Assembly (NCBI GenBank): GCA_002688035.1
Contig: NZBU01000009.1
Coordinates: 25,929-89,928, forward strand
Origin: Candidatus Iainarchaeum sp.
GTDB lineage: Archaea > Iainarchaeota > Iainarchaeia > Iainarchaeales > GCA-2688035
Reading direction: 5' to 3'
Length of the DNA: 64,000 bases
Every line of letters starts with the position of its first letter. Positions within the stretch are counted from its first letter, which is position 1. The notes beneath the pieces are model-generated. The model made no database searches. It saw only the letters and a program-made list of their open reading frames with translations, and was not told the DNA's origin. This document shows, piece by piece, positions 7,653 to 61,807 of the stretch. The position numbers were made by a program, and so were the translations under genes.

Positions 7653-7684
7653 TATATCATCACTCCCAAATCATTTTTTTTGAT

Positions 7685-31851: not shown

Positions 31852-32175
31852 TCACACGAGATCTATCTTGATTCCGCCAACCTTCCCGGCAACGAAGTTG
31901 TAGATTACTGCGCCAATTGCGCCGACAATAAATCCGCCAACTGCTCCCGTAATAACCAATACAACAGTGGTAATTAATCCGCCAACAAGCCCTGCGCCAG
32001 CAAAGGCTGCTGTATTTGCACCAGGAATAGCTGCAGCCATTGAACCAATAAAGCCCATAAATAGCGTTAGCATTAGTCCCATAATCAAATAGACTACTGC
32101 CAAAATTACAGCCATGACCTTTCCATATTGAACCGGATCAACTCTTGCTATTGTTTGCGTAGCCATAGATTTCAC
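31852..32175 (-). CDS. small membrane protein, paralog 1 of a tandem pair
   Basis: The protein is ~100 aa with 2 to 3 TM. It shares the motifs RVDPVQYGK and KVGGIKIDLV with the next gene. Confidence 0.5.
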   Translation of the reverse strand: MKSMATQTIARVDPVQYGKVMAVILAVVYLIMGLMLTLFMGFIGSMAAAIPGANTAAFAGAGLVGGLITTVVLVITGAVGGFIVGAIGAVIYNFVAGKVGGIKIDLV

Positions 32176-32283: not shown

Positions 32284-32577
32284 TCAAGCAATATCTACTT
32301 TTATTCCGCCGACTTTTCTTGCTACAAGATTATAGATCCAGGCTATGATTGCGCCAAAGACAAATCCTATTACACCATACAAAGCAGCGCCTAGGACGGT
32401 AACCAACAATGCGCCTAAAAGCACGAGGATTCCATTTGCTCCTGCAATTGCCATTGTACCAATTCCACCGAACAATGAAACGATTACTCCAAAAATAAGC
32501 ACCATTCCAGCCATCAGTGCTGCATAGATTTTTCCTAATGAAACAGGATCAATTCTTGTAAGTGTTTTTGTAACCAT
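32284..32577 (-). CDS. small membrane protein, paralog 2 of a tandem pair
   Basis: It has RIDPVSLGK and ARKVGGIKVDIA, the same architecture as 31852..32175. Confidence 0.5.
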   Translation of the reverse strand: MVTKTLTRIDPVSLGKIYAALMAGMVLIFGVIVSLFGGIGTMAIAGANGILVLLGALLVTVLGAALYGVIGFVFGAIIAWIYNLVARKVGGIKVDIA

Positions 32578-32612: not shown

Positions 32613-33251
32613 TTATTTAATTGTTTTGCACTGCATTTTGCCCAATGCATTCTTTGCAAGTGCCTCAATATCAAGCTCTTTTCCCTCAAAACCAATTTTT
32701 TCCTCTGTGGCCTTGGTAGCGGGCTTAACAGGAATAGAGCAGCAAGCGCTTGGCAAAATGCTTGTCTCAAACGTTCCAAATTTTCTTGCGAGCTTCTCTA
32801 TCTCCAGCTTGTCCATTCCAAGCAGCGGCTTTATTATTGGTAGGTCTGCAGCAGAGTGCTCTGCATTAAGGTTGTAGAGAGTCTGCGAGGCAACTTGCCC
32901 AAGGCTTTCTCCAGTGAGTAGGGCAGAAGCCTTCTCTTTCTCAGCAAGCTTTGATGCAATGTGCATCATCATTCGCCTGCATAGCACACAACTGTATTTT
33001 CTGTTAGCTTTTTTTGCAATCTCAAAGAGAGTTGGACCATGAGGTACAACGCAAACCTTGATTTCTTTTCCAAACTTTTTGCCGAGCAGTTTTGCAAGCT
33101 TCTCTGTCTTCTCAATGCCACGCGTGTTTCCAAGTGGTTTTGTGTCAAAGTGAAGCATCACAATATCCAATCCATTCTCAAGAGCCATGCTGCTAACAAC
33201 AGCACTATCAATTCCACCCGATACTAGTGCGATAATCTTAGTCATTTTCAA
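32613..33251 (-). CDS. ThiI-like PP-loop ATP pyrophosphatase domain protein (no THUMP domain)
   Basis: The PP-loop SGGIDSAV and the ThiI motif LTGESLGQVASQTL are present, with a CxxC near the C-terminus. The protein is 212 aa. Confidence 0.65.
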   Translation of the reverse strand: MKMTKIIALVSGGIDSAVVSSMALENGLDIVMLHFDTKPLGNTRGIEKTEKLAKLLGKKFGKEIKVCVVPHGPTLFEIAKKANRKYSCVLCRRMMMHIASKLAEKEKASALLTGESLGQVASQTLYNLNAEHSAADLPIIKPLLGMDKLEIEKLARKFGTFETSILPSACCSIPVKPATKATEEKIGFEGKELDIEALAKNALGKMQCKTIK

Positions 33252-33993
33252 TCACCTTTTCAACAATCCTCTTTGCAAGTTCAACAGTTCTCCCTTCCAC
33301 ATCCTTCAAAGGGTTTACTTCAACCAAATCAATTCCCCTAGCCTTCCCGCTTTTAAGCAAGGCATCCAACAGGGGCATGAATTCCTCTTCCAACAAGCCG
33401 TTTGGCACCAAGTAACCTGTGCCTGGAGCAATGCTTGGGTCAAATCCATCTATGTCAATGCTCACATATATTTCATCATTCAATGCAATTAGTTCCAGCA
33501 GCTTATCCATTACCTGCACCGGCTTTGACTTAACTTCAACTGCGCTCACGACTTTTATCTTGTTGTGCTTTATGTACTCTGTTTCAAGGGGGTCCACTTT
33601 CCTAATCCCGATTTGCAAAATGTTCTCTCCCTTAACTAACTTTTCTTCCACCACTCCCTGGATCCAGTCCTCATGGCTCAGTGGAGCGAAGAACTGCACG
33701 CAGTCAGGATGAGCATCAAAAACCACAAGCGCCTTTTTGCCATCTGTAGTTTCAGAGAATCCTTTCACAAGTGCATAACTTATTGAGTGGTCCCCTCCAA
33801 CAAATAATGCCTTCTCTTTTGCCAAAACTTCTTTGGCTTTTGCATAAATGGCTTTATCTGTGTCCTCAATATTGCTTGGCACGATTGGAGTTTCATCAAA
33901 CTCTCTGCCCTCCAAAATGAGCGGGGGGGCTTTTCCACAACCCTTGTTTTGGTCCAAGTTTCCCTGTTCACTCGGAACACTTAGTATTCTCAT
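33238..33993 (-). CDS. speB: agmatinase / ureohydrolase family
   Basis: GGDHSISY, DAHPD and SIDIDGFDP are the arginase-fold Mn-binding motifs. It is adjacent to aIF5A, a conserved linkage through the hypusine pathway. Confidence 0.75.
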   Translation of the reverse strand: MRILSVPSEQGNLDQNKGCGKAPPLILEGREFDETPIVPSNIEDTDKAIYAKAKEVLAKEKALFVGGDHSISYALVKGFSETTDGKKALVVFDAHPDCVQFFAPLSHEDWIQGVVEEKLVKGENILQIGIRKVDPLETEYIKHNKIKVVSAVEVKSKPVQVMDKLLELIALNDEIYVSIDIDGFDPSIAPGTGYLVPNGLLEEEFMPLLDALLKSGKARGIDLVEVNPLKDVEGRTVELAKRIVEKVIEND

Positions 33994-34029
33994 AAGAAAA
34001 AGATTGCAAGGAAACTTAATTAAGGGCTT

Positions 34030-34431
34030 TTACTCGCTTCTAATCCGGACAACTTTGATGAGGTCGCCCCATCTAATATATTCTACGTTGCCGCCTTGTT
34101 CCACCGTAAGGTTCTTTGGCTTTGGAGAATTGAACATCTCATAGGTCTCGATGTCCATGAGCTGTACTTGGCTCCCCATTATTGCGACAACCTGTGCCTG
34201 GCTCCTCTTAATTATTGGCACTTCAACGTCAACGCCTGTTCCCTTCAACAGGTTTCTTTTTTGGTCTGTGAAAACATCAAAAGCCATAATCCTTACTTTT
34301 GCGCTACCGTGCTTTCCTGGCTTGCTTTTGTCCACGCTTTTTACCTGACAAACTGTTCCCTCAATTAGCACAAAACTGCCCGGTTTCAAGGAACCGGCAT
34401 TAGTAAACTTCTTTTCCCCGTCAACCATCAA
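34030..34431 (-). CDS. eif5a: translation initiation factor 5A (aIF-5A)
   Basis: The hypusine loop KPGKHGSAK is present. The protein is 133 aa. Confidence 0.85.
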   Translation of the reverse strand: MMVDGEKKFTNAGSLKPGSFVLIEGTVCQVKSVDKSKPGKHGSAKVRIMAFDVFTDQKRNLLKGTGVDVEVPIIKRSQAQVVAIMGSQVQLMDIETYEMFNSPKPKNLTVEQGGNVEYIRWGDLIKVVRIRSE

Positions 34432-34636
34432 AAAGCACCTTTTCTAACAAACTTACAAAACTAGAGCGAATTTAATTAAAAAGGTTTCTGTGGCAGTCCC
34501 TGCGTCATTGATAGATTTTAATACATTTCCCCATTTCCTTATATTTATCATTAACTATTGTGTGCGCGATGGCGCGGTGTTTCTCTTGGTACTGGATAAA
34601 GTCAGAAAGCGAATCGATTCTGTAGTAAATAAGAGA

Positions 34637-35053
34637 ATGGAGAAGAATATTGCTGTTTTTGTTGATGGCCCAAACATCCTGAGGAAGGAACTGGGCATTG
34701 ATTTGGAGGAAGTAAAAAGTGTTCTCCAAAAGAACGGGAACATTAAGATCGCAAAGGTCTTTTTGAACCAGTTTGCATCCAACAAACTTGTGGAAGCTGT
34801 TGTAAATCAGGGCTTTGAAGCAATAATTACTGTTGGGGATATTGACGTTGCAATGGCGGTTGAAGCAACAGAGTCCTGCTTCAACAAATCAATTCAGGCA
34901 ATAGCCTTTGTAACCAGGGACTCGGATTTTTTGCCGGTAATTGTTCGGGCAAAGAGTCGGGGAAAAGAAACAATCGTGGTTTTGGCTGAGGAGGCCAGTG
35001 CGGCAGCCTTAAAAAACACTGCCGACCAAATAATTATTGTTGGTGGGCGATAA
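34637..35053 (+). CDS. NYN/LabA-like (PIN-related) domain protein
   Basis: IAVFVDGPNI...AFVTRDSDFLPVI is the NYN pattern. Confidence 0.55.
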   Translation: MEKNIAVFVDGPNILRKELGIDLEEVKSVLQKNGNIKIAKVFLNQFASNKLVEAVVNQGFEAIITVGDIDVAMAVEATESCFNKSIQAIAFVTRDSDFLPVIVRAKSRGKETIVVLAEEASAAALKNTADQIIIVGGR

Positions 35054-35056
35054 AAA

Positions 35057-35551
35057 ATGAACATTCCTATCGGAACACTTGTCGAGGAAAACATTTCCCT
35101 AAAGGGAACAGATATCAAACAAAAAATTTCTACCCTGCTTGAACAGGGTTTTACAGGCTACCTTGTTCTAACAGTTGAGGGTAGAAGTGGGATTGAAGAA
35201 GGACTACTGCTTTTGAAAAATGGTTTGGCTGTTGGCGCAATTTACGAGTATGTGAAATTTGCCAAAAGTTTTTATGGGGATCATGCATTCGAACAACTGT
35301 TTAATTCTTCGCTTGCAGAGTTCGGCGTAATGGATATCGGTAGTTTAAGCAAACAGCAAGTTGAACTAATAATTGCGTTCAACGAGAAGATAGAATTCAA
35401 GAAAGCACTTGAGCCAAAGGAATTGGAGAAGCTTGTTCCAAAGAAATTTGACGCCGATGTGGCTGAAAAGGCGTTGGGAAAGAAATTTAAAAAGAAGGAA
35501 TCAAAATTTGATGTATTCAAAAAACTTGGATTAGGTGGAGTTAGTAAATGA
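35057..35551 (+). CDS. hypothetical protein, possibly Roadblock/LC7-like
   Basis: TGYLVLTVEGRSGIEEGLLLLKNGLAVGAIYEY resembles the Roadblock beta-hairpin. It is only weakly supported. The C-terminus is K-rich. Confidence 0.3.
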   Translation: MNIPIGTLVEENISLKGTDIKQKISTLLEQGFTGYLVLTVEGRSGIEEGLLLLKNGLAVGAIYEYVKFAKSFYGDHAFEQLFNSSLAEFGVMDIGSLSKQQVELIIAFNEKIEFKKALEPKELEKLVPKKFDADVAEKALGKKFKKKESKFDVFKKLGLGGVSK

Positions 35552-36009
35552 GAAAGAAAATTGGTTTCCTTATAAGGCGAATCGCTGGAAGCATACTTGA
35601 CATGGATGACACAACAGTTCCATATGAACAACTGGAAATCCTCAACGACTTCCTATCAAAGCACCAGTTTGATCTTAATCAGGCCGACTTAAATATTTTG
35701 ATGCGGGAGCTAAAACGTAAGCACATGGTTGACAGCATCAGCATTATTGACACTAACGGGGAACTTGTTATCAGCAGCGAGGGCAACGGCAAGAAAGAGG
35801 CAAGCCTTGCTTCATATTTGATGGGTTATATTGATAGTGAACTTGCAACCCCTGAAAGTGTTCTGATAAAGGGAAACAACAGTTGGTTCATGGTTTTCCC
35901 GTTCAATGACCAAACTTATATTATAAGAGCACAAGCCTCATTGTCTAACACAGAATTGAAGGCACTGGCTAGAGAACTTGAGTCATTCAAGGTGGGCAAC
36001 AGCGGATAA
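35548..36009 (+). CDS. Roadblock/LC7 (MglB-like) domain protein
   Basis: The segment MVDSISIIDTNGELVISSEG...ASLASYLMGYIDSEL...SWFMVFPFNDQTYIIRAQ has alpha-beta-beta-alpha-beta order and a residue pattern typical of Roadblock/LC7. Confidence 0.45.
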   Translation: MRKKIGFLIRRIAGSILDMDDTTVPYEQLEILNDFLSKHQFDLNQADLNILMRELKRKHMVDSISIIDTNGELVISSEGNGKKEASLASYLMGYIDSELATPESVLIKGNNSWFMVFPFNDQTYIIRAQASLSNTELKALARELESFKVGNSG

Positions 36010-36096
36010 AGTGCGCAGAAATACTTATTTTGCGACTTCTCTTATAAGAAAAGATTTTTAAGGAATACAATCTATTAAACCTATAACATTGGTGTT

Positions 36097-36927
36097 TTGA
36101 TGGTTAGAATTATTACTATTGCATCTGGAAAAGGTGGGGTCGGAAAAACCACTATTACCGCTAACTTAGGAATTGCCCTTGCGCAACAAGATTTGAGAGT
36201 ACTTGTAATTGATGCCGATATTGCAATGGCAAACTTAAGTCTGCTACTTGGAATGCAGTCTTCCCCCATTACTTTACATGATGTGCTTCTCGGGGAAAGC
36301 AATGTTCACGACGCAATTTATGATGGGCCCGGCGGAATACACTTTATTCCAAGCGGTCTAAGCATTGAAAGCTATCGTAGAGTTGATGCCGAGCGCCTTG
36401 AATCTCTTGTGAGGGAAATAGCGGAGAGCTATGACTTTGTTTTAATGGATGCTCCAGCCGGAATAGAGAAGAGCGTGATGGCCGCACTCTCTGCAGCCGA
36501 TGAAGTTCTACTTGTAACAATGCCAAATTCTCCAAGCGTTGCAGATGTCCTGAAAACAAAGATTGTGGCGCAGCGCATTGGGAGTCATCCTGTCGGAATT
36601 GTACTGAACTTTTTGCGTGGAGAAAAAGGCGAAATTAGTGACGATGATATTATGAAGATGCTTGAACTCCCAATCTATGGGATGATTCCATATGATTCCG
36701 AGATCAGGAAGAGTTTTATGCAGGAAAACGTTGCACCAGTAATGATTCGTGTTCCTAATAGCCCCGCATCCATTGCAATAAGAAAGATGGCGGCAAAACT
36801 CTCAGGGGTTAGTGTTGCCCCACAAATAACTAAGGTTAAAAAACCAGGATTCTTATCCAGACTTTTTGGCTTCTTCAGGAAAAAGAAGAAAGCCAGTGCA
36901 GAAGAAATAAAAAAGGAAACAGAATAA
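36097..36927 (+). CDS. minD: MinD/ParA-family deviant Walker-A ATPase
   Basis: The deviant Walker A GKGGVGKTT and the family motifs DAPAG and VVLN are present. Confidence 0.8.
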   Translation: MMVRIITIASGKGGVGKTTITANLGIALAQQDLRVLVIDADIAMANLSLLLGMQSSPITLHDVLLGESNVHDAIYDGPGGIHFIPSGLSIESYRRVDAERLESLVREIAESYDFVLMDAPAGIEKSVMAALSAADEVLLVTMPNSPSVADVLKTKIVAQRIGSHPVGIVLNFLRGEKGEISDDDIMKMLELPIYGMIPYDSEIRKSFMQENVAPVMIRVPNSPASIAIRKMAAKLSGVSVAPQITKVKKPGFLSRLFGFFRKKKKASAEEIKKETE

Positions 36928-36943
36928 AAGGAGGAATTTGATA

Positions 36944-37162
36944 ATGGCAAACAGACCATTCGATCTGCTCAACGAAGCAATCGGTAAAGAAGTACTTGTC
37001 ATGCTAAAGGGGAACATACAAGTTCGAGGCACATTGAAAGCATTTGATGTGCACATGAATATTGTTCTTGAAAGCGCGGAGCAGCTGGAAAACGGCGAAG
37101 CAAAAACAAAGTACGGAAAGCTGATGGTTCGCGGGGACAACGTAATTCTAATCAGCCCGTAG
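36944..37162 (+). CDS. Sm-like archaeal protein (SmAP/LSm)
   Basis: Sm1 and Sm2 motifs are present, KEVLVMLKGNIQVRGTLKAFDVHMNIVL and VRGDNVILI. Confidence 0.75.
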   Translation: MANRPFDLLNEAIGKEVLVMLKGNIQVRGTLKAFDVHMNIVLESAEQLENGEAKTKYGKLMVRGDNVILISP

Positions 37163-37223: not shown

Positions 37224-37295
37224 GGGCCCTTAGTCTAGTGGTATGACGCTCGGTTGGCAATCGGGAGATCCCGGGTTCAATTCCCGGAGGGTCCA
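37224..37295 (+). tRNA. tRNA-Ala (anticodon GGC)
   Basis: The cloverleaf has acceptor GGGCCCT/AGGGTCC with the G3:U70 Ala identity pair. The anticodon loop is TTGGCAA, the T-arm is CCGGG-TTCAATT-CCCGG, and the discriminator is A. Confidence 0.8.
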
Positions 37296-37351: not shown

Positions 37352-39010
37352 TTGGCTATTTTCTATTCGGTTATGGCTAATAAAAAAAAGATTCTGATTG
37401 GCAGTGTCAAAAAACTTATTGCACTCAAAGTTCCTGATAAGGAGATTGTGGTTAACCTGCGTGATGTCGGCATTGATGAGAAGCAGGCAAAAAATTTAAT
37501 TAAACTTGCGAAGCAGACCCCCTCAGAGAAAGAAGTTAAGAAGCCCGAGTCTAATCCTGAACCAAAGCCACTACCAAAACCAGTTGCCAAAGAAGCCACT
37601 CCAAAGGTTGCTGAAGAAAAATCTCTTGATCAAATAAAGAATGAGTTGCAAAAGAAGGATTTTGTCAAGGATGAGAAGATGAGTGAGGGTGACAAAAAAA
37701 GTTTTTTTGAAAAGCTTGTAAATCGCTCTGCCAAAGAACCTTCAAAAAAGAGTAAGATTGATGAGATTGCAGAGGCAATTCAACCAAAAGTTGAGGGAGA
37801 GAAGCCAAAGCCTGTAGTCGAAATCCCTGCCCCAAAACCTGAGCCCAAATCAATTGAGCAGAAACCAATTCCGGCAGTGGTTCCCAAACCTGTTATGCCG
37901 CTTCCAAAATCTGCGGCTCAGCCAAAATCTGTTGTTCAACCCAAACCAATTCCGGCCCAAAGAACTTCATCACTTGATATTTCAAAACTATGGGAGAAAG
38001 GGATTCTCTCATCTGTTAATGACAAGCTCAAAGAAATAAAAGAGATAAAGGCGGATGTTGATATCGCGATCGAAAAAAGGGCCGATGAGGTAGCCAAAAA
38101 GGAGATTAACAAGATCCAGGTTTTGTTTGATTCCCAACAGAGTCTTTTCATGGAAAAAGTAAATGCAAAGTTGGATGAAAAAGGAAAAGAAGTTGAGGAA
38201 CTAATTGACAAGAAGATCGTGGAGATGAAGCAAACATCCTCCACACTCGAAAAGGAGATGGGTGACCTTGAGGTCAATAGAAAACAATACAAGGATTTCA
38301 TAAGCGAGATGACCACAAAGCTTACCGAGTTGGAGCACACCAAAAACAAGCTTGTGAGTGGAATGAATTCAGAGCTCATAAAATCGAAGAGCGAGATGCA
38401 AGAGTTCATGGATTCTTCTCAGAGCAAAGTAAGAGATATTGATGACAGGGTTAACAAAACTCTAGAAGTGGGTTTGAGTGTAATTGATGGTTTAAAGGTT
38501 GATGCTGAAACCCAATTAAAGGATTTTGCGATAAAGAGAAGTGATGACTTGAACCATGACATGCGCGAACAGTTGGGCGAGCTTAAGGATACTAAGGGTG
38601 CCTTTGAGAATCAGATAAAAGAGAATCTTGCCATGTTAAAGGAAATGAAGACAACGTATGAATCACAGATCGAGGGAAGATTAAAAAGGCTTGATCATTT
38701 AGAAGCAGCTATAAGGAAAGAGTTTGATCCCGCAATGTTCAAACAGCAGATGAATGACTTAGAGGGTTTCAAGCAGCAGTTTGTAAAGGTTATCGAGACA
38801 AATGTTGGCAAATTTAACCAGGCCATCCAGGAGATAAACGAGCAGGCCAATCAAGCCGAATCCAAGATAAACGGCCAAATAAGACTGATTGACAAGAAGA
38901 TGACAGAGCTTGACGAATTTGAGAAGACCTTTGCAGAAGAAATGGGTCTGTCAGTAGAAAAAGCCTTTGAGAAAAAGAAACAAGCCAAGTCAAAGAAAAA
39001 GAAGAAATAG
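37352..39010 (+). CDS. long coiled-coil protein with a Pro/Lys-rich linker and polylysine C-terminus
   Basis: The protein is 552 aa. It has a ~50-aa N-terminal domain, a PKP-repeat linker, then ~330 aa of heptad-like charged low-complexity sequence ending KKKQAKSKKKKK. Confidence 0.5.
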   Translation: MAIFYSVMANKKKILIGSVKKLIALKVPDKEIVVNLRDVGIDEKQAKNLIKLAKQTPSEKEVKKPESNPEPKPLPKPVAKEATPKVAEEKSLDQIKNELQKKDFVKDEKMSEGDKKSFFEKLVNRSAKEPSKKSKIDEIAEAIQPKVEGEKPKPVVEIPAPKPEPKSIEQKPIPAVVPKPVMPLPKSAAQPKSVVQPKPIPAQRTSSLDISKLWEKGILSSVNDKLKEIKEIKADVDIAIEKRADEVAKKEINKIQVLFDSQQSLFMEKVNAKLDEKGKEVEELIDKKIVEMKQTSSTLEKEMGDLEVNRKQYKDFISEMTTKLTELEHTKNKLVSGMNSELIKSKSEMQEFMDSSQSKVRDIDDRVNKTLEVGLSVIDGLKVDAETQLKDFAIKRSDDLNHDMREQLGELKDTKGAFENQIKENLAMLKEMKTTYESQIEGRLKRLDHLEAAIRKEFDPAMFKQQMNDLEGFKQQFVKVIETNVGKFNQAIQEINEQANQAESKINGQIRLIDKKMTELDEFEKTFAEEMGLSVEKAFEKKKQAKSKKKKK

Positions 39011-39020: not shown

Positions 39021-39093
39021 TGGGCCTGGGCGGAATTGAACCGCCGATCTCCCCGATGTCAACGGGACGTCATAACCACTAGACCACAGGCCC
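39021..39093 (-). tRNA. tRNA-Val (anticodon GAC)
   Basis: The reverse complement folds as GGGCCTG...TTGACAT...GGCGG-TTCAATT-CCGCC-CAGGCCC with anticodon GAC. Confidence 0.8.
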
Positions 39094-40284: not shown

Positions 40285-40890
40285 ATGAGTGCGACAAAAG
40301 CAATACAGGAAACGTTTGCAAAAGAATTTGCCGGTAAGAAAGATAAGTCTTACGATTACAAGGCAATCCAGCGTGAGCGCATGATTGGCTTCAGGAAAGA
40401 GAAGCAGGCTATTGTTCGTCTTGACAAACCAACAAATATTGCCAAGGCTAGAACCTTGGGCTACAAGGCAAAGAAGGGCCTTGTTGTTGTAAGGGTTAGA
40501 GTGCGCAGAGGAAGTGGTGCACAGCGTAGGCCAAAGAAGGGTAGAAAGCCAAAGCGCATGGGTGTAAATAAGCTGACAAGAGCAATTAGCATTAAGGGCA
40601 TTGCAGAGCAGCGCGCTTCAAGAAAGTATGAGAACTGCGAAGTTTTGAATTCTTACAAGATTGGTGCAGATGGAAAGCATCATTATTATGAAGTAATTCT
40701 GGTTGACACTTCAGCACCTGAAATAAAATCTGATAAAGATCTAAATTGGCTTTGCGAGAAAACCCAGAAAGGAAGAGCCGAGCGTGGTTTAACTTCCGCT
40801 GGAAAAAAGAGCAGGGGTCTTCGCAGAAAAGGCAAGGGTGCAGAAAAAATCAGGCCATCTCTGAGAGCAAAGGGCAGAAAGGGAAAGTAA
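40285..40890 (+). CDS. rpl15e: 50S ribosomal protein L15e
   Basis: YKAIQRERMIGFRKE...VVRVRVRRGSGAQRRPKKGRKPKRMGV is the L15e signature. Confidence 0.85.
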   Translation: MSATKAIQETFAKEFAGKKDKSYDYKAIQRERMIGFRKEKQAIVRLDKPTNIAKARTLGYKAKKGLVVVRVRVRRGSGAQRRPKKGRKPKRMGVNKLTRAISIKGIAEQRASRKYENCEVLNSYKIGADGKHHYYEVILVDTSAPEIKSDKDLNWLCEKTQKGRAERGLTSAGKKSRGLRRKGKGAEKIRPSLRAKGRKGK

Positions 40891-40976
40891 AAGCACTTTT
40901 TCTTTTTTTTGTTAAAAAATAAAACCTGCACTAAAAGAAAAACACTTTTTAAAATGAAGCAGGCTAATTCTTCTCA

Positions 40977-41816
40977 ATGCCAGCAAAAGTTTTTCTAATC
41001 CAAAAAGAGTTTCTGCAAAAGCTGCCCGCTACTTTTCAAAAACTCGGTTTCAAGCAGCGCTTTGAAAACAAGTCTACTGCCGTAAAAGTTCACATGGGTG
41101 AGTATGGGAACCTGAATTATGTGAGGCCGCCGATTGTTGGCAAGTGTGTTGAAGAGCTATTGGCAGTTGGAGCAAAACCATTTCTGTTCGATTCTCTCAC
41201 CAAATATCACGGGAACCGTTTTACTGTTGAAGATTATAAGGAAACCGCACGCAAGAACGGTTTTACCGAGGAAACAATTGGCTGCCCCATTGTGATTAGT
41301 AATGAAACCGTGAATGCAGAAGGATTCATGGATCGGGAAGTCGGGCTATGCAAAGACGTGGTTGATGCAGACGCCATCTTCACAATAAGTCATTGCAAGG
41401 GACATGGCTTTGCAGGATTTGGCGGGGCAATTAAAAACCTTGGATTTGGCGCAGTAAACCAGGAAACAAAAAATGTTGTTCACGGGAACAAAAGAAAGCT
41501 CCTGGAATTTATTGCAAACCAGTGCTTTGCAGTGCTCAAACAATTTGAAAACGGAAACTCTATTTATGTAAACGTGCTCAACGATATCTCAAAGCTCTGC
41601 GACTGTCATGGTGATGCCGGGTTTGGGATAATGAAAGGGATAGGGATTGCGGTAAGCGATAATATTGCGGCAATAGATAGGGCTTCAATAGATTTAATCA
41701 ACAAAGAGTTTGGCCAAGACTTTTTCGAGCATTTGAATCATATTGATCCCAGGCCGCAGTATGAACTGTTGGAACAACATGGGATTTTATCTGATTATTT
41801 TCTTGAGGTGATTTAA
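40977..41816 (+). CDS. DUF362-like protein (putative Fe-S/ferredoxin-related)
   Basis: VKVHMGEYGN...ISHCKGHGFAGFGGAIKNLGFG is the DUF362 pattern. Confidence 0.45.
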   Translation: MPAKVFLIQKEFLQKLPATFQKLGFKQRFENKSTAVKVHMGEYGNLNYVRPPIVGKCVEELLAVGAKPFLFDSLTKYHGNRFTVEDYKETARKNGFTEETIGCPIVISNETVNAEGFMDREVGLCKDVVDADAIFTISHCKGHGFAGFGGAIKNLGFGAVNQETKNVVHGNKRKLLEFIANQCFAVLKQFENGNSIYVNVLNDISKLCDCHGDAGFGIMKGIGIAVSDNIAAIDRASIDLINKEFGQDFFEHLNHIDPRPQYELLEQHGILSDYFLEVI

Positions 41817-42316
41817 TGAGATTCAAACTTTTGAAAGGAGACATTGCAGACGCAGTTGTAGACGCAATAGTTAATGCTGCAGGAACCTCCCTTCATATGG
41901 GTGGGGGAGTAGCCGGTGCCTTGAAGAGAAAAGGCGGACAGGAAATAGAGGACGAGGCCCTAAAAAAAGCACCCATTGGATTAGGCAAGGCCGTTGAAAC
42001 AAATGCAGGCAAGCTAAGCGCCAAGTATGTGATTCACGCAGCGGCAATGCCGCACTCAGGGGATGAAAGGGCAACATCGGACAGTATTTCCCAGTCAACA
42101 AGACATGCTTTAAAACTGGCGGACGAATTAGAATGTCAGACAATTGCAATTCCGGCGGTTGGGTGTGGCATAGCCGGCTTTCCCCTAAATCAGGGTGCAA
42201 AAATTATTCTAAGAGAAATTTTTCGCTTTCACGGAAAAAATTTGGAGAAATGTATTGTAGTATTGTTCTCTGATGCAGAGTACAAAGCTTTTGACCAGGC
42301 TTCAAGGAGAGTTTAA
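41816..42316 (+). CDS. macro domain (ADP-ribose binding/processing) protein
   Basis: IVNAAGTSLHMGGGVAGAL and VIHAAAMP are macro-domain signatures. Confidence 0.7.
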   Translation: MRFKLLKGDIADAVVDAIVNAAGTSLHMGGGVAGALKRKGGQEIEDEALKKAPIGLGKAVETNAGKLSAKYVIHAAAMPHSGDERATSDSISQSTRHALKLADELECQTIAIPAVGCGIAGFPLNQGAKIILREIFRFHGKNLEKCIVVLFSDAEYKAFDQASRRV

Positions 42317-42862
42317 ATGTCTAAAAATATTCCCACTCCTGAAGAGTGCATTCCACTCCTGAAAAAGTACGGGGCCACTGAAACAATTATTGGACACTTG
42401 AAGCAAACCGCAAAAGTTGCAGTATTCCTCGGAAAAAAATTGGCTGAGAAAGGAGAAGAGATTGATTTACCACTTTTGGAAGCTTCTGCTTTGCTGCATG
42501 ATATTGACAAGAAGATTACTCTTGATGATCATTCAAAAAAGCATGCCGTGGAAGCAGAAGCAATTCTGAAGAAAGAAGGTTTTCCAAAGATTGCAGAAAT
42601 TGTGAGACAGCACAGGTTGGGATGGATACGCGAGAACCAATTTTCAGGGTGGGAGGCAAAGCTTGTTTACTATTCGGATAAAAGGGTTAGGCATGATCAA
42701 ATAGTTTCGCTTGAAGAGCGCTTTGAATACTTGCTTGAGAGATATGGCTCCATTTCAAAGGAGGCCAGAGAAAGCATTCTGAAAGCCAAGCCAAAAGTAT
42801 TTGAATTAGAGGAGGAAATTTTCTCCAAAATTGATGTTGACAAGAATTTGAAGGGGATTTGA
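42317..42862 (+). CDS. HD-domain phosphohydrolase
   Basis: The H...HD pattern (ALLHDIDK) is present. The protein is ~180 aa. Confidence 0.5.
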   Translation: MSKNIPTPEECIPLLKKYGATETIIGHLKQTAKVAVFLGKKLAEKGEEIDLPLLEASALLHDIDKKITLDDHSKKHAVEAEAILKKEGFPKIAEIVRQHRLGWIRENQFSGWEAKLVYYSDKRVRHDQIVSLEERFEYLLERYGSISKEARESILKAKPKVFELEEEIFSKIDVDKNLKGI

Positions 42863-43149
42863 TGCAAAAACAACAGCAGAGAACAAAAATCAGGCCCTCG
42901 CAGAGGATGAAGAAGCGCTATATGCTATTCGAGTATATGGCGAGTGATTCTTTCGAAAGGGTTCGGGAAGCTCTTTTTGAGTTGGGAGTAAAGCCCCTGA
43001 AGCTTGTAGAGTTCAATTCTCAGACAAAAAAGGGAATTGTGCGCTGCGAAAGAGGCAAAGAATCTGCTTTGAAAACAGCGATGACAAAGGTCGATTTTAA
43101 GCCGATTAAGACTAGCGGGACCATCAAAAAGCTACGTAGCCTGCCTTAA
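42859..43149 (+). CDS. rnp2: RNase P protein component 2 (Pop5/Rpp14)
   Basis: KKRYMLFEY...GIVRCERG...SGTIKKLRSL closely parallels the Pyrococcus Pop5 stretch KKRYIAF...GIVRCDR...SGTIKRLKRK. Confidence 0.7.
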   Translation: MMQKQQQRTKIRPSQRMKKRYMLFEYMASDSFERVREALFELGVKPLKLVEFNSQTKKGIVRCERGKESALKTAMTKVDFKPIKTSGTIKKLRSLP

Positions 43150-43235
43150 AACGCATTTGACAATAGCTTTTTAATCTCTTTCAAACACACTAGTCTTAGG
43201 CTCACAGTAGTGAAATTTATTTTAGGTAGATAACT

Positions 43236-43409
43236 ATGGCGCTAGTCAATGCATTAAAGGCAAAGTGTACCAAGTGCGGTTATGGCATTCCTTTGAGTAG
43301 CCAAGAGTATGAAAAAGCCGAGGGAGTACAGTGCCCAAAATGCAGTTCTGATTGGACAATTCTAAGGGATGACGGCGAACTCTTTCTTGAGCTAAAGAAG
43401 AACCAATAA
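43236..43409 (+). CDS. small zinc-ribbon protein (57 aa), absent from the ORF track
   Basis: The product is MALVNALKAKCTKCGYGIPL...VQCPKCSSDW, with two CxxC pairs. It lies between pop5 and psmA. Confidence 0.45.
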   Translation: MALVNALKAKCTKCGYGIPLSSQEYEKAEGVQCPKCSSDWTILRDDGELFLELKKNQ

Positions 43410-43486
43410 GCTCGAGGAAGAAGCTTTTTATAGTTAACGTAGATAAAATTCTTTAAACTGGAAAGATAAGGAGATTAAGGGTTAAA

Positions 43487-44212
43487 ATGTATCCTGTTTC
43501 TAGAAAAGGCTCAGCCTATGACCGTGTTGCAACGATGTTTTCTCCAGACGGCAGACTATATCAGGTTGAGTATGCCGGCAAAATCGTGGAGCAGGGAACC
43601 ATTGGCGCAGCCCTAGTATACGATGACGGAGTTCTTTTTGGCGCCGACAAAAAGATTTCAAGCAAGCTTATTATTCCAAAAAGTGTTGAAAAATTATTCA
43701 AGATTGACGATCATGTAGGCGCAATTTCCGCAGGACTAGTTGGGGATGCGAGAAGGCTTGTCCAGATCGCGAGAAAAGAATCCCAGGAAAACAAAATGTA
43801 CTACGAGGAAAAGATTCCTGTGGAAACACTTGTAAAACACGTTAGTGGAGTAAAACAATTATTCACACAGTATGCTGGAATGAGGCCTTTTGGAGTGAGT
43901 TTTATTATGGGTGGCGTGGATGACACCGGCCCAAGGCTTTTTGAAACAGAGCCAAGCGGTGCACTTGCCGAGTACAAGGCAATAGCAATTGGCAAGGACA
44001 GGAAAGAGGCAATGAAGGTCTTTGAGAAAAAGTATAAAGAGGGAATTGATTTTGAGGCCGGTATAAAACTGATTACCGAGGCTCTTGAGGCTGCGCGCGA
44101 TGACAAGGAAAAATCTGATGTTAATAGGTTAGAGTTTACTTTCATTTCAAATGGCGGTTCTTTTGAAAGGATTGAAACACAAAAATTGAAATCTATTTTA
44201 GGGAAAAAATAA
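43487..44212 (+). CDS. psmA: proteasome alpha subunit
   Basis: The N-terminus YDRVATMFSPDGRLYQVEYA is the alpha-subunit signature. Confidence 0.9.
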   Translation: MYPVSRKGSAYDRVATMFSPDGRLYQVEYAGKIVEQGTIGAALVYDDGVLFGADKKISSKLIIPKSVEKLFKIDDHVGAISAGLVGDARRLVQIARKESQENKMYYEEKIPVETLVKHVSGVKQLFTQYAGMRPFGVSFIMGGVDDTGPRLFETEPSGALAEYKAIAIGKDRKEAMKVFEKKYKEGIDFEAGIKLITEALEAARDDKEKSDVNRLEFTFISNGGSFERIETQKLKSILGKK

Positions 44213-44245
44213 TTAAAGTAAATAATTTAAGAGGTTTAAAAAACC

Positions 44246-44947
44246 ATGGTGAAATTAGAGGACGCGGTAATCGCAAGAATCGAGAAAAATGGTGAACACT
44301 TCGAAATTCTTGTTGATCCCGCACTTGCTTTAAAACTAAAGAAAGGTGAAACAGTGAGTTTTAATGATTTACTAGTAATCGATACAGTTTTCAAGGACGC
44401 CAAGAAAGGCAGCGAGCAGAGCCCTGAATCCCTGAACAAGGCTTTTGCCACAGTTGAGATAAACGAAGTTGCAGAGAAAATTATTATGCAGGGAGAAGTG
44501 CAGCTCACAACCGATCAGAGAAGAACAATGCGCGAGGCAAAGAAAAAAGAGATAATCGCGATTATATCCAGAAACGCTTTGAACCCGCAAACCAATGCAC
44601 CTCATCCACCAAAAAGAATTGAGATTGCATTGGAAGAAGCAAAGATAATGATTGATGAGAACAAGAGAGCGGACGAGCAAGTTTCTGATATTTTGAAGGA
44701 GTTGAAAAAGATAATCCCGATTTCATTTGAAAAACAGCAGATTGCAATAAAGGTTCCTGCAGAGCAAGCGGGCAGAGTATCAGCTTTCCTGCACAAGCAC
44801 GATCTCAAAAAGGAACAATGGATGAATGACGGAAGCCTTGTCGCTATAGTTGAAACTCCGGCAGGTCTAAGAAACGAGTTTTTGACAGAATTGAATCATT
44901 TAACACACGGAGACGTGGAAACAAAAATAATGGAGAAAGGTGACTGA
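44246..44947 (+). CDS. sdo1: SBDS/Sdo1 ribosome maturation protein
   Basis: The SBDS N-terminus is present, and the gene is at the SBDS position in the exosome superoperon. Confidence 0.7.
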
Positions 44948-44949
44948 AT

Positions 44950-45573
44950 TTGAGTGAGAAAAAAATTGTTATACCCGGAGACCTGGTTACTGAGGAGAGA
45001 AAGAAGCTCGGCAGCCATGTTTTTGTTGAAAATGGTAAAGTATTCAGCGATTCCCTTGGTTTGTTTTATCCTGGGAAAGACATAGCATCTGTGGTGCCGC
45101 TGCATGGGAAATATATTCCAAGAAGAGGAGATTTGATAGTAGGAATAGTTGTAAGTCAAACCTACTCAGGATATATTGTGGATATTAATAGCATTTATTC
45201 AAGCTATATTTCAAAAGAATTAACTCGCGACAGGTTAAAGCGAGGCGCCGTAATATCGGCAAAAGTAACCGATGTAAACGAAGTAAATGAGGCTGACTTG
45301 GATGACGTGCGAGTATTTTATGGCGGCGAAGTTCTATCTGTAACCCCTGTAAAAATTCCAAGGATGATTGGAAAGAATGGAAGCATGTTAAACGCTTTAA
45401 AGGACGGAACCGGTTGTAGTCTACTTATTGGTAGGAATGGCTGGGTATGGGTAAAGGACGGAAATGTTCCTTTACTGGTAAAAGCAATCGATCTTATTGA
45501 ACGAGAAGCCCACTTAAACAATCTTACAAATAAAGTTGGAGACTTCTTAAATAAAAACAAGGGTGAAAAATGA
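44950..45573 (+). CDS. rrp4: exosome RNA-binding subunit Rrp4 (S1 and KH domains)
   Basis: It has an S1 region (GDLIVGIVVSQ) followed by a KH region (IGKNGSMLNAL). It lies upstream of rrp41. Confidence 0.75.
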   Translation: MSEKKIVIPGDLVTEERKKLGSHVFVENGKVFSDSLGLFYPGKDIASVVPLHGKYIPRRGDLIVGIVVSQTYSGYIVDINSIYSSYISKELTRDRLKRGAVISAKVTDVNEVNEADLDDVRVFYGGEVLSVTPVKIPRMIGKNGSMLNALKDGTGCSLLIGRNGWVWVKDGNVPLLVKAIDLIEREAHLNNLTNKVGDFLNKNKGEK

Positions 45574-46370
45574 TGGCTAAGAAAAAAGATGAAATTGAGT
45601 ATGTGAAAAACGGGAAAAGAGTTGACGGCAGAAAGGTTGATGAACTAAGGCCGTTGAAAATCGAAGTTGGAGTTATTGACAGAGCAGACGGATCAGCTTA
45701 TGTTGAATGGGGACAGAACAAGGTTCTTGCCGCAGTGTATGGCCCAAGAGAGGCCCTGCCAAAACACATTCAGAATCCTTACAAGGCTCTGGTTAACTGT
45801 CAGTACAGAATGGCAACATTCAGTGTTCCAGACAGAAAGAACCCAAGACCTGGGCGAAGGGAAATAGAAATTTCAAAGGTCTGTAGTGAAGCTCTTGCAA
45901 AATCAATATTCATAGAGAGATTTCCAAACACTAAAATTGATGTGTTTGTGCAAATACTTGACAGTAATGCCGGGACAAGAGTAGCCGGATTGATTGCTGC
46001 AAGTGTAGCATTAGCTGATGCAGGAATTCCAATGAGGGATTTGGTAGCAGCAACAGGTGTTGGTAAAGCAGGTGGAGAAATAATTCTTGACCTCAACAAA
46101 GAGGAAGAAGATGCGCCTGATGCAGTTGACATTCCACTGGCAATATTGCCAGGAACAGAGGAAATAGTTTTGCTTCAGATGGATGGACTACTCACAAAAG
46201 AAGAGTGGAAGAAATCAATTGAGCTTGGAATAAAAGGCTGTAAACAGGTTTACGAGGTGCAGAAAGAGGCTTTGCGAAAAAAGTATGGCGAAGCTGAGAA
46301 GGAAACTGCAAAAGCAAGAGAGCCCAGTGCCAAAGAAACCAAACCAAAAAAAGAAGAGAAGGTGAATTAG
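45570..46370 (+). CDS. rrp41: exosome catalytic subunit Rrp41 (RNase PH family)
   Basis: It has the RNase PH fold and the phosphate-binding region GTRVAGLIAASVAL. Confidence 0.85.
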   Translation: MMAKKKDEIEYVKNGKRVDGRKVDELRPLKIEVGVIDRADGSAYVEWGQNKVLAAVYGPREALPKHIQNPYKALVNCQYRMATFSVPDRKNPRPGRREIEISKVCSEALAKSIFIERFPNTKIDVFVQILDSNAGTRVAGLIAASVALADAGIPMRDLVAATGVGKAGGEIILDLNKEEEDAPDAVDIPLAILPGTEEIVLLQMDGLLTKEEWKKSIELGIKGCKQVYEVQKEALRKKYGEAEKETAKAREPSAKETKPKKEEKVN

Positions 46371-47150
46371 ATGGATGACGTTATATGGGACTTAAGAGTA
46401 GACAGTGCTGTAAAACTTATCAAAGAAGGTAAGCGTATTGACGGAAGGGCATTGGACGAATACAGGAAAATTGATATACAAAATCATATTAGTGAAACTG
46501 CAGAGGGCTCCGCAATAGTTAACCTTGGAAAAACAAGGATTGTTGCAGGAACCAAAATGATTTTGGGAACCCCCTATCCTGATTCACAGGACCAGGGAAC
46601 AATCTCAGTTGGAGCAGAATTATTTCCAATTGCATCCCCCTCATTTGAATTTGGCCCTCCAAAAGCCGCGGCAATAGAATTGTCAAGGGTTATTGACAGG
46701 GGTATCAGAGAAAGCAAGTCCATAGATTTCAAGGACCTTTGCATAACCGAGGGAGAACAAGTGTGGATTGTCTTTGTTGACCTCTATACTATGAATGACG
46801 ATGGGAACTTCTTTGATGCAGGCAGTATTGCTGCACTATCAGCTATGCTGGAAACAAAGATCCCAAAGGTTGAGGATGGGAAAATAGTGAAGAAAGAGTA
46901 TAGCGGAAAGCTAAAACTCTCAAAGAAACCTTTGCTATGCACTTTTGCAAAGATTGCAAATAAGATAGTTATTGATCCAACTCTGGTGGAAGAGAAAGCA
47001 CAGGATGCAAGGTTCTCTGTTTCAACAGCTGACGACAAGCACTTGTGCGCATTCCAGAAGGGTGAGCAAGGTTCTTTTACAAGAAGCGAAATAGACGAGT
47101 GCATTGAAATAGCTTTCAAGCGCGGAAAAGAAATAAGGAAAACATTATAG
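46371..47150 (+). CDS. rrp42: exosome subunit Rrp42 (RNase PH-like)
   Basis: It has the RNase PH-like second ring subunit pattern, and gene order supports the call. Confidence 0.8.
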   Translation: MDDVIWDLRVDSAVKLIKEGKRIDGRALDEYRKIDIQNHISETAEGSAIVNLGKTRIVAGTKMILGTPYPDSQDQGTISVGAELFPIASPSFEFGPPKAAAIELSRVIDRGIRESKSIDFKDLCITEGEQVWIVFVDLYTMNDDGNFFDAGSIAALSAMLETKIPKVEDGKIVKKEYSGKLKLSKKPLLCTFAKIANKIVIDPTLVEEKAQDARFSVSTADDKHLCAFQKGEQGSFTRSEIDECIEIAFKRGKEIRKTL

Positions 47151-47160
47151 GTGAAAAGAA

Positions 47161-47709
47161 ATGGGAAAGACTGCAAAAGTAAAGACCACAGGCCGATTTG
47201 GTTCACGTTACGGAGTGGGCATTAGAAAACGCGTGGTAAAAGTAGAGAAAGTCCAAAAACAAAAACACCGTTGTCCAAAATGTGGTTTTATAAGAGTCAA
47301 AAGGCTCGCAGCCGGAATATACACTTGCACTAAATGCAACATAAAAATTGCAGGCGGAGCATATATTCCTGAGACCATGAGCGGCAGCATTGTAAGAAAA
47401 ATGGTCGCCCAAAAGCAGTTCCTACCCTATATGAAAGATTTGATTGCAAGTAAGGAGCCCGGAGCCAAGGAAGAGGTTTTAGAGGCTGTCGGGGAAAAAG
47501 CTGAATCTGTGGAAGAAAAACCAAAGGCAGAGAAAAAAGTGAAGAAAAAGGCCAAGGCAAAATCCGCGGAGAAAGCCGAGAAGAAAGAGAAAAAGGCAAA
47601 GACTGAGAAAAAGCCTGTGAAGAAAAAGGCAGCTGCAAAGAAAGATGCTAAGCCAAAAAAGGGAAAAAAGGAAAAGAAAGAAAAAAAAAGAAAAGAAAAA
47701 ATGAGGTAA
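47161..47709 (+). CDS. rpl37ae: 50S ribosomal protein L37Ae with a ~100-aa Lys/Ala/Glu-rich C-terminal extension
   Basis: The N-terminal ~85 aa (GRFGSRYGVGIRKR...CPKCG...CTKC) is the L37Ae Zn ribbon. It is followed by KAEKKVKKKAKAKSAEKAEKKEKKAKTEKKP.... Confidence 0.8.
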   Translation: MGKTAKVKTTGRFGSRYGVGIRKRVVKVEKVQKQKHRCPKCGFIRVKRLAAGIYTCTKCNIKIAGGAYIPETMSGSIVRKMVAQKQFLPYMKDLIASKEPGAKEEVLEAVGEKAESVEEKPKAEKKVKKKAKAKSAEKAEKKEKKAKTEKKPVKKKAAAKKDAKPKKGKKEKKEKKRKEKMR

Positions 47710-58145: not shown

Positions 58146-58420
58146 AATACTTTTATGTTCTCAAGATTTAAGATTCTTCCTCAAAATGCGTTATGTAGAA
58201 GTCTAATCCCTATTTGTGCGCTTTTCGCCCAAAAGGGCAAGTTTTATATATGGGATTCGCCCCAATTTTCTTAACAGGTTCTTTTGTGAGCCTGTCAGGG
58301 TGCGTTTCTGCTTGGTCTTCTCGACTCGGGAATGCATCCGTCCTTCTTATCTTTTTTCTCCAATCCAAACAACCTCAACATTTAAATACAAGTGCGGGAT
58401 TATTATATTGGTTTTTGCTT

Positions 58421-59179
58421 ATGGTTCGCACTAAGACTGGTATCCAGGGCCTTGACAAAGCTCTTATGGGTGGAATCCCTGAGGGTAACATTGTTTTACT
58501 TAGTGGTGGAGCCGGAACAGGTAAGTCAACTCTTGCAATGCAGTTCTTGATGAACGGCGCTTCTCTTTTTGGCGAGCGCGGTCTCTATATTAGTACTGAA
58601 CAAGACCGCGATGAACTAATGAAAGCAGCCAACAATTTCGGCTGGAAGCTTGATGACCTCGAGAGCAAGAATCTCGTCAAAATCGCTTACTTTGACATTA
58701 CTGAGGGAAATGACTTCCTCAACAGGGTCGATACCCTTGTCCAGAACTTTAAACCAAAGCGAATAGTAATTGACAGCATGACAACTCTCACAGATTCCCT
58801 GATGATTTCCGGCATAGGCAAAAAAGATGCCTTTTCCATGGTTCAAATACAGGAAACAGTTTCCCCTATTCCCCGAACCGAAAAGGTTGTCGCAAAAAGC
58901 ATCCTCTACAATCTCATCAAAAAACTGAAGCACTACAAGGTTACAACACTTCTTACGAGTGAACTTCCCGAGGAACACAAAGCACTGAGTGCAGATGGGA
59001 TAAGCGAGTTTATTACAGATGGTGTGATTGTATTACACTATTTGGGGATAGGGTCGGCTAATTTTAGAAACCTTCAAATTAGAAAAATGAGATATAGTAG
59101 TCATGAGAAAGATATAATTTCATATTCAATTGCCTCTAAGGGGATTGAAATCCAAGCGGAGGAGAGCTTGGAAATCTAA
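58421..59179 (+). CDS. KaiC/RadA-like single-domain RecA-superfamily ATPase
   Basis: GIQGLDKALMGGIPEGNIVLLSGGAGTGKSTLAMQF contains the Walker A, and Walker B is IVIDSMT. The start was taken at the internal ATG 58421 rather than the track start 58214. Confidence 0.65.
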   Translation: MVRTKTGIQGLDKALMGGIPEGNIVLLSGGAGTGKSTLAMQFLMNGASLFGERGLYISTEQDRDELMKAANNFGWKLDDLESKNLVKIAYFDITEGNDFLNRVDTLVQNFKPKRIVIDSMTTLTDSLMISGIGKKDAFSMVQIQETVSPIPRTEKVVAKSILYNLIKKLKHYKVTTLLTSELPEEHKALSADGISEFITDGVIVLHYLGIGSANFRNLQIRKMRYSSHEKDIISYSIASKGIEIQAEESLEI

Positions 59180-60603: not shown

Positions 60604-60608
60604 AAGGC

Positions 60609-61703: not shown

Positions 61704-61807
61704 TAGCCTGATTTAAATAACTTTACTTGTTTCTTTTCTAACCCGAACAGACTAAATCAACCTTTTAGTTGATTTTTTAACCTTTTCTTTTCTATTAAAT
61801 ATATTAG

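Follow-up and report, generated by a model that had tools for sequence, protein, structure and literature searches.

ATPases of the ParA/MinD family dimerise on ATP and bind a surface, the membrane in the case of MinD, from which a partner frees them by stimulating hydrolysis. In the bacterial MinCDE system, MinE consists of an N-terminal membrane helix and a dimeric alpha/beta domain. Roadblock dimers, MglB among them, control the nucleotide state of P-loop GTPases and, to our knowledge, Roadblock-fold proteins are described elsewhere only as regulators of small GTPases. Here, we analyse a gene string found in a 64,000-nucleotide stretch of DNA from Candidatus Iainarchaeum sp., a DPANN archaeon of the phylum Diapherotrites/Iainarchaeota. 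The whole stretch is called the window below, and coordinates are positions in it unless another locus is named. All on the + strand, the open reading frames (ORFs) of the string encode an NYN protein (gene 1), a DUF2226 protein (gene 2), a protein that very likely adopts a Roadblock/LC7 fold (gene 3) and an archaeal MinD ATPase (gene 4), followed by an Sm-like (LSm) protein. We propose, with the case for and against about evenly balanced, that the core of this string is a conserved three-gene unit, DUF2226, Roadblock-fold and MinD, forming a MinD-family positioning module in which new partners replace MinC and MinE.

According to published work, neither MinC nor MinE is found in the archaea that have MinD, and no MinD partner is known to give a phenotype (PMC13228585, PMC11588486). 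The haloarchaeal MinD proteins position archaella and chemosensory arrays, and not the divisome (PMC11588486). MinD/FleN-like ATPases and Roadblock proteins have each been noted near archaeal type IV pilus loci (PMC4858521). Placement of the archaeal division site has been credited to the Dip/Arco GTPase oscillator, which is absent from some lineages and is found in only a part of DPANN. It is composed of the GTPase DipA/ArcoA, the SepF-like protein DipB/ArcoB and the FtsZ1 antagonist DipC/ArcoC (PMC13228585; bioRxiv 10.64898/2026.07.23.738820). Recent papers place MinD in Euryarchaeota only. Against this statement, the present locus carries, in a DPANN lineage, a MinD with a predicted membrane helix of the bacterial type. 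Our literature search found no paper on a Roadblock protein paired with a MinD/ParA ATPase and no relevant one on DUF4388 with Roadblock. A full-text search found none mentioning DUF2226, which Pfam describes as a family conserved in archaea.

By analogy, the locus appears most like a Min/ParA-type positioning system, and it may echo the MglA/MglB(/PATAN) systems with the GTPase swapped for MinD. As in bacterial MinCDE, small putative partners are encoded in a string with an ATPase of the MinD family, which has a deviant Walker A motif and an amphipathic helix at its C-terminus. No MinC or MinE homologue is present, however, and the DUF2226 and Roadblock-fold proteins have no detectable sequence relation to either. 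The MglA/MglB polarity module of Myxococcus and other bacteria, and the archaeal pairs of a Roadblock protein and a small GTPase, also have a Roadblock-fold protein beside a P-loop NTPase. In our case, the NTPase is a SIMIBI-class MinD ATPase and not a Ras-like TRAFAC GTPase, and the Roadblock protein fails the Pfam Roadblock profile (PF03259) and bears an extra N-terminal amphipathic helix.

Two archaeal systems are also close. Haloferax volcanii MinD2 and MinD4 are archaeal MinD proteins without MinC or MinE, and a small protein encoded in the minD2 operon, HVO_0596, has been proposed as a partner of MinD2 (PMC11588486). The window MinD differs in being closest, among solved structures, to Archaeoglobus fulgidus MinD-1, and its candidate partners are encoded upstream and are of the DUF2226 and Roadblock-fold types. 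The Dip/Arco oscillator shares a general plan with what is predicted for the locus, namely a three-gene operon encoding a membrane-binding NTPase with an amphipathic helix and a small membrane-binding alpha/beta regulator (PMC13228585; bioRxiv 10.64898/2026.07.23.738820). There is no homology between the two: an Era-like GTPase, a DUF2073/SepF-like protein and a Zn-ribbon protein are found on one side, and a MinD ATPase, a Roadblock fold and DUF2226 on the other.

Gene order in the window and across related loci

In the window, the NYN gene ends at 35053, 3 bp before the DUF2226 ORF (35057..35551, 164 aa). The stop codon of the latter overlaps the ATG of the Roadblock-fold gene (35548..36009, 153 aa) by 4 bp. 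A spacer read directly from the sequence (36010..36099) separates this gene from minD (36100..36927), the gap being 87-90 bp with a minD start at 36097 or 36100. The LSm/SmAP gene follows (36938..37162; PF01423, E 3.3e-23; NF001963, E 2.9e-30) and is probably co-transcribed. This layout agrees with the original prediction, made from the letters of the sequence, of four co-directional genes with gaps of 3 to 90 bp, the second and third being a tight overlapping pair.

Related loci were gathered by exact-protein look-ups, by a genome scan, by a metagenome scan with a diverse DUF2226 alignment and by look-ups of the most distant gene 3 relatives. Each of the two scans was driven by one degenerate peptide pattern. 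The loci were scanned with profiles and phmmer, and collapsing DUF2226 at 95% identity gave 67 distinct loci. MinD is encoded on the same strand, within 2 kb downstream of DUF2226, in 42 of the 43 distinct loci having at least 1.4 kb of downstream sequence. The Roadblock-fold gene comes directly after DUF2226 in 59/63 distinct loci, and LSm directly after MinD in all 30 that have enough sequence. The concern that the adjacency might be unique to this genome, voiced with the original prediction, is removed by these counts.

The order persists at low sequence identity (13-25% for the most distant Roadblock-fold proteins, 30-37% for DUF2226) and when the flanks change (TatD on the upstream side; glyoxalase, toxin genes or deoxyhypusine synthase on the downstream side). 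In the distant loci, the codons of DUF2226, Roadblock-fold and MinD overlap or are 0-4 bp apart; unlike in the window, where the spacer intervenes, the Roadblock-fold gene and minD overlap or are separated by 2 bp. The order is also kept despite insertions at its edges or inside it. These are a HAD gene, an Hsp20 gene and, between the Roadblock-fold gene and MinD, a LAGLIDADG gene (locus L081, 6567-7334) or, in another locus, a 76-aa ORF. A free-standing LAGLIDADG homing-endonuclease-like ORF is also found in the window, at 5760-6545.

The arrangement is not uniform. In three distinct loci of high G+C (L071, L077 and L078), MinD starts 4-12 bp after DUF2226 and there is no Roadblock-fold gene; the same arrangement is seen in L073 and L076. 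DUF2226 is thus a more constant neighbour of MinD than the Roadblock-fold gene. NYN lies directly upstream of DUF2226 in 33/46 distinct loci; elsewhere it is absent, or split off by an opposite-strand HAD gene or by an Hsp20 gene. Because it is so often displaced or missing, NYN is probably not part of the module. In most related loci aIF5A is located upstream, on the opposite strand.

All loci with an organism label fall within Diapherotrites/Iainarchaeum, the species-level collection titles being Candidatus Iainarchaeum or ‘archaeon’. A word-indexed search with the DUF2226 family profile and the genome and metagenome scans returned only this lineage. Two contigs of Chloroflexota/Chloroflexi metagenome-assembled genomes (L022 and L024) carry aIF5A, NYN, DUF2226, Roadblock-fold and MinD genes, with LSm also in L024. 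They are probably mis-binned archaeal contigs.

The ATPase belongs to the archaeal MinD family

The gene 4 product scores 292.7 bits against the archaeal MinD family TIGR01969 (cut-off 201.75, E 1.8e-87) and is a member of it. With the bacterial MinD family TIGR01968, it scores 151.1, below the cut-off of 212.9. A deviant Walker A motif, SGKGGVGKT, occupies residues 9-17, contains the signature lysine of KGGxGK[ST] and is present in 42/42 distinct MinD orthologues. The assignment of gene 4 as a MinD-like ATPase with a deviant Walker A, already made from the sequence, is borne out by the family match and the motif. The closest solved relative is A. fulgidus MinD-1 (1HYQ), which aligns over its full length, C-terminal helix included (E 5.6e-70). 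The start codon is most likely ATG 36100, giving a 275-aa protein that begins with MVRIITIASGKGG, because this start matches that of A. fulgidus MinD-1 and a GGTG is located 8 nt upstream.

The C-terminal helix, KKPGFLSRLFGFFRKKKK, is strongly amphipathic. Within the protein, no 11-mer exceeds the hydrophobic moment of FLSRLFGFFRK (0.72), a segment of this helix with a net charge of +3, and an equivalent motif is found in about 40 of the 42 distinct orthologues. The helix is predicted to be of the membrane-targeting type, like the anchor of bacterial MinD. It resembles KKGFLKRLFGG, the membrane-targeting sequence of E. coli MinD. Neither the genes of the string nor the window ORFs scanned gave a family match to MinC or MinE. 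In a divergent Diapherotrites genome (L029/L030), MinD is 425 aa long (6456-7733), about 160 residues of Pro/Ala/Thr-rich repeats being found after the membrane-helix motif.

A probable Roadblock/LC7 fold in gene 3

Modeling indicates that the gene 3 product very likely has a Roadblock/LC7 fold, from about residue 45 to residue 150, yet it stands outside PF03259 by threshold. No match to this profile was obtained even at E <= 1, and no other Pfam or NCBIfam family was matched. Matches to Cache domains (E 0.013-0.047) were judged to be noise. The family is small: a search of 1.84 billion proteins yields 71 representatives at 50% identity.

Three independent, individually weak lines of sequence evidence point to a Roadblock-like domain. 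When the PDB is searched with gene 3 profiles, seven dynein LC7/Roadblock sequences are retrieved, at E 0.13-0.41 and with the whole domain aligned. Five of 55 relatives weakly match PF03259 (best E 0.0043), and one relative matches LAMTOR5. Finally, comparison of the gene 3 family profile with human DYNLRB1 using hhalign gives a probability of 38% and an E-value of 3.4e-4 over 78 columns. Ten matches of the gene 3 profile, all on one short segment of a 1581-aa repetitive eukaryote-like protein (P0083), were excluded as a spurious repeat or compositional artefact.

The AlphaFold2 (AF2) model has a mean pLDDT of 54 and an alpha-beta-beta-alpha-beta-beta-beta-alpha topology. The Roadblock order alpha-beta-beta-alpha-beta-beta-beta is found at residues 45-128, and a C-terminal helix follows. 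A Foldseek search of the PDB with this model gave 99 matches at E <= 1e-3. The top 50 are almost all of the Roadblock/LC7 fold (MglB, LAMTOR2/3/5, two Asgard Roadblock proteins and dynein LC7), the remaining ones being Rag C-terminal and Mon1-Ccz1 domains. The best match is MglB (E 1.2e-5, probability 1.00). Taken with the three sequence lines, these matches led us to conclude in favor of the Roadblock/LC7 fold. Gene 3 had been credited beforehand with a Roadblock/LC7 signature, with PF03259 suggested as the check. The fold is recovered by Foldseek from the model of pLDDT 54, but the PF03259 search, once run, fails.

About 45 extra N-terminal residues precede the Roadblock-like domain. A basic amphipathic helix is located there, at about residues 3-16 (KKIGFLIRRIAGSI; hydrophobic moment 0.58, charge +4), and the same stretch holds a conserved acidic linker, DDT.VPYEQLE.L. 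The helix is kept in 55 gene 3 relatives, even though their sequence identity is low, with a median moment of 0.59 and a median net charge of +2. It ranks at a median 96th percentile within its own protein, a figure somewhat inflated as the best of 15 windows was taken. Roadblock-type domains normally dimerise. With its amphipathic helix placed ahead of an alpha/beta domain of a dimerising type, the protein is laid out like MinE, and it also recalls MglB acting on MglA.

The DUF2226 protein

The gene 2 product is a member of DUF2226 (PF09987; 36.3 bits for a cut-off of 22, E 5.6e-9), with a match spanning only profile positions 1-151 of 252. All 25 close relatives also match the family. The product is 100% identical to a protein carrying the NCBI label Candidatus Diapherotrites archaeon. 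In the AF2 model (pLDDT 83), the elements are arranged in the order beta, alpha, four beta strands, alpha, beta, alpha, beta, then helices, which is not the Roadblock order. A Foldseek search of the PDB with this model gave nothing significant (best E 0.08). Searching solved structures by sequence gave no match either, the best hit, TetR-like at E 0.83, being judged noise. We also considered genes 2 and 3 as paralogues and rejected the idea, the profile-profile comparison giving a probability of 0.3%. The description of gene 2 as Roadblock-like in the original prediction is therefore abandoned: the protein is a DUF2226 member of differing topology, without profile similarity to gene 3.

Weak, sub-threshold matches to DUF4388/PATAN (PF14332) were seen in 3/35 members of the DUF2226 family, far below threshold. 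This faint similarity is a lead, not a result. If real, it would add a PATAN-like protein to the string, as in MglA/MglB/PATAN systems. At the C-terminus, gene 2 carries a conserved motif, KKESKFDVFKKLGLGG, whose family form is SK.D/E.L/F.KK.GL. A membrane helix was considered for this motif and rejected (hydrophobic moment 0.24-0.28, rank 85 of 154). Since this moment is unremarkable, a protein-binding peptide is more likely, and the motif could be a docking peptide of the kind used by ParA/MinD activators. In the divergent L029/L030 genome, DUF2226 reaches 255 aa and has an acidic, Pro-rich tail.

The NYN protein

The gene 1 product (34586..35053) matches Pfam NYN (PF01936, E 3.8e-24) and belongs to TIGR00288 (191.7 bits for a cut-off of 178.45, E 7.5e-57). 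The TIGR00288 alignment starts at profile position 22, and the homologues are 151-155 aa long with a similar N-terminal stretch; the start was therefore moved upstream. It is probably TTG 34586, giving 155 aa, about 50 nt upstream of ATG 34637. Thus, the NYN assignment made beforehand holds, with a start at 34586 in place of 34637. In L029/L030, a second NYN paralogue (2410-3009) adjoins aIF5A.

Proposed role and alternative explanations

If DUF2226, Roadblock-fold and MinD form a positioning module, MinD would bind the membrane as an ATP-bound dimer through its C-terminal amphipathic helix. The two small proteins would stand in for MinC and MinE, which are absent, as its dedicated partners. 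The Roadblock-fold protein may regulate the nucleotide cycle of MinD or its membrane residence. DUF2226 is found in every locus, including those devoid of the Roadblock-fold gene, and it is proposed to be an obligatory adaptor or effector linking MinD to a target, which could be the division site, pili or another structure. A physical interaction between MinD and these partners, regulation of the ATPase and a positioning function are what we infer from the gene content and gene order. Judged from sequence, the DUF2226 and Roadblock-fold proteins are candidate partners of archaeal MinD, two concrete ones that can be tested. A stronger version, in which they would be analogues of MinC and MinE in a self-organising, ATP-driven gradient or oscillator positioning the division site or another envelope machine, is rather improbable.

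MinD is the only NTPase that consistently adjoins the Roadblock-fold gene, and the small-GTPase adjacency typical of Roadblock proteins is not seen. No GTPase gene was found inside the cluster, from NYN to LSm, in any locus whose called genes were listed, nor among the window ORFs scanned. The idea of a positioning module joining a Roadblock protein to MinD instead of a GTPase was put forward in the original prediction. The gene pairing, the probable fold and the adjacency have stood up, whereas the family HMM match and the Roadblock-like nature of gene 2 have not, and NYN is probably no member.

If the Roadblock-fold protein does act on MinD, it would be the first of its fold to regulate a SIMIBI-class ATPase instead of a small GTPase, and the range of NTPases regulated by this ancient fold would extend to that class. 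If the stronger, self-organising version were true, it would count, next to bacterial MinCDE and archaeal Dip/Arco, as a third Min-like system of independent assembly. Should the DUF2226-MinD pairing also hold in Euryarchaeota, where the closest solved MinD (Archaeoglobus) comes from, the partner so far missing for archaeal MinD in general would be DUF2226.

Several observations weigh against a positioning module. The Roadblock call depends on a low-confidence model (pLDDT 54) of a protein that fails the Pfam threshold. A few lineages lack the Roadblock-fold gene, and DUF2226 and MinD can therefore fulfil their role without it. In one locus (L070), a 990-aa ORF comes after the Roadblock-fold gene and no MinD is nearby, MinD having been lost. 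In the window itself, the spacer before minD holds A/T-rich TATA-like stretches (cttataag and gatttttaagg), in addition to the GGTG 8 nt before the minD ATG, and may contain an internal promoter. With such an 87-bp spacer, NYN, DUF2226 and the Roadblock-fold gene are maybe transcribed apart from minD and lsm here. HVO_0596, the one MinD operon partner tested in Haloferax, gave no phenotype (PMC11588486). Since MinC and MinE are absent as well, new candidates bear on how archaeal MinD is regulated and on its targets. Finally, as all labelled loci come from one phylum, the order could partly be synteny inherited in an information-processing region (aIF5A, LSm, L15e, exosome/proteasome).

This last point leads to the main alternative, fairly unlikely in our view: inherited synteny without shared function, in a slowly rearranging housekeeping region of a single phylum, MinD acting alone or with partners encoded elsewhere. 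The restriction of the labelled loci to Diapherotrites/Iainarchaeum speaks for this explanation. It also fits the position of the locus between aIF5A/agmatinase and a series of LSm, tRNA, L15e, RNase P, proteasome and exosome genes, and the nearly equal constancy of aIF5A and LSm as neighbours, although neither can plausibly be linked to MinD. It accounts less well for the distant loci, in which the flanks change while the trio stays contiguous with overlapping or nearly abutting codons, and for the many loci in which NYN, and not the trio, has been lost or displaced. Moreover, the two small proteins have no other recognisable role.

A second alternative accepts the fold of gene 3 and leaves MinD as an incidental or downstream neighbour. 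The Roadblock-fold protein, maybe with a PATAN-like DUF2226, would act on a Ras-like GTPase encoded elsewhere, as in MglA/MglB. Characterised Roadblock proteins do act on small GTPases, and gene 3 has its top structural matches in MglB, LAMTOR and the C-terminal domains of Rag proteins. Genes for PATAN/DUF4388 are a regular presence near homologues of mglA/mglB (bioRxiv 10.1101/2021.06.11.447907), and a faint similarity to DUF4388 is seen in DUF2226 members. However, the DUF4388 link is far below threshold, and the absence of a GTPase gene from the listed clusters and the scanned window ORFs, with MinD as the only consistently adjacent NTPase, makes this alternative quite improbable.

It is still more doubtful that the string is an operon for RNA metabolism, its function being set by the NYN ribonuclease and LSm, with MinD and the small proteins serving RNA processing or ribonucleoprotein assembly. 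NYN and LSm do bracket the string, LSm is invariably found after MinD (30/30), and the neighbours are translation and RNA genes. Yet by score MinD is a genuine member of the archaeal MinD family and has a helix of the membrane-targeting type, NYN is dispensable or displaced in many loci, and neither small protein has a recognisable RNA-binding domain. The reading as an anti-phage defence or mobile-element cassette, built on the NYN nuclease and the ParA-like ATPase, is effectively refuted because the chromosomal context is fixed, a housekeeping one with aIF5A upstream and LSm downstream in nearly all distinct loci, and the G+C content is ordinary: the PADLOC matches that suggest it (NYN, E 9.6e-7; MinD P-loop, E 1.5e-10) are generic, cover shared domains only and leave out the two small proteins, and a tblastn search of a plasmid collection with the DUF2226 protein gave no match.

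Genomic surroundings and other features of the window

The surroundings of the locus are housekeeping genes, and the G+C content around it, about 0.41-0.42, is in no way unusual. Upstream, on the opposite strand, are genes for an arginase-family protein, a ThiI-like PP-loop protein and aIF5A. The last of these (34030..34431, - strand; NF003076 IF-5A, E 3e-41, above cut-off) is the divergent neighbour of the string and is regarded as context, outside the module. The arginase/agmatinase-family gene adjoins aIF5A (33238-34431 for the two), and a deoxyhypusine synthase gene is found after LSm in the distant locus L032 (1537-2547). These placements suggest that genes of the hypusine pathway tend to stay near the locus.

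Downstream of LSm, the order is tRNA-Ala, a gene for a 552-aa coiled-coil protein, tRNA-Val and a PP-loop ATPase. The tRNA-Ala(GGC) gene (37224..37295, + strand), identified with ARAGORN directly after LSm, ends the protein-coding string. The tRNA-Val(GAC) gene (39021..39093, - strand) comes directly after the coiled-coil gene. In the 552-aa protein (37352-39010), the N-terminal half is rich in Lys and Pro and the C-terminal half is a long coiled coil; no Pfam family is matched. Homologues are encoded downstream of LSm in many loci, but the distance varies, and in one case the gene is upstream on the opposite strand. None was detected in several divergent loci with ample downstream sequence (e.g. 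L029 and L077). Because of this variable placement, the protein was rejected as a core member; it may be a cytoskeletal or scaffolding protein with a loose link to the MinD string.

Farther downstream are the genes of L15e, RNase P Rpp14, proteasome alpha, SBDS and the exosome proteins Rrp4, Rrp41 and Rrp42. They belong to a classic archaeal information-processing cluster (40285-47709), in which genes for DUF362, Macro-domain and HD-domain proteins follow L15e and which ends with L37ae. The L37ae ORF (47161-47709) encodes 182 aa, about twice the family length, and its Pfam match covers residues 3-84 only. Two genes may thus be fused or read through here.

Three other features of the window were noted. 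A KaiC/RecA-like ATPase gene is located at 58214-59179. Published work has linked this family to the regulation of archaeal type IV pili and of the archaellum; no pilus gene was recognised among the window ORFs scanned. The region 60001-62000, which covers genes for a UbiA prenyltransferase and an FAD-dependent oxidoreductase as well as unassigned ORFs, has a G+C content of 0.33, compared with about 0.41 elsewhere. Lastly, two tandem paralogous genes on the - strand (31852-32175 and 32284-32577) encode small hydrophobic proteins of 107 and 97 aa, for which only a weak match to DUF3566 was found. The two proteins are alike at both ends, with ...RVDPVQYGK and ...RIDPVSLGK in their N-terminal parts and ...KVGGIKIDLV and ...KVGGIKVDIA at their C-termini.

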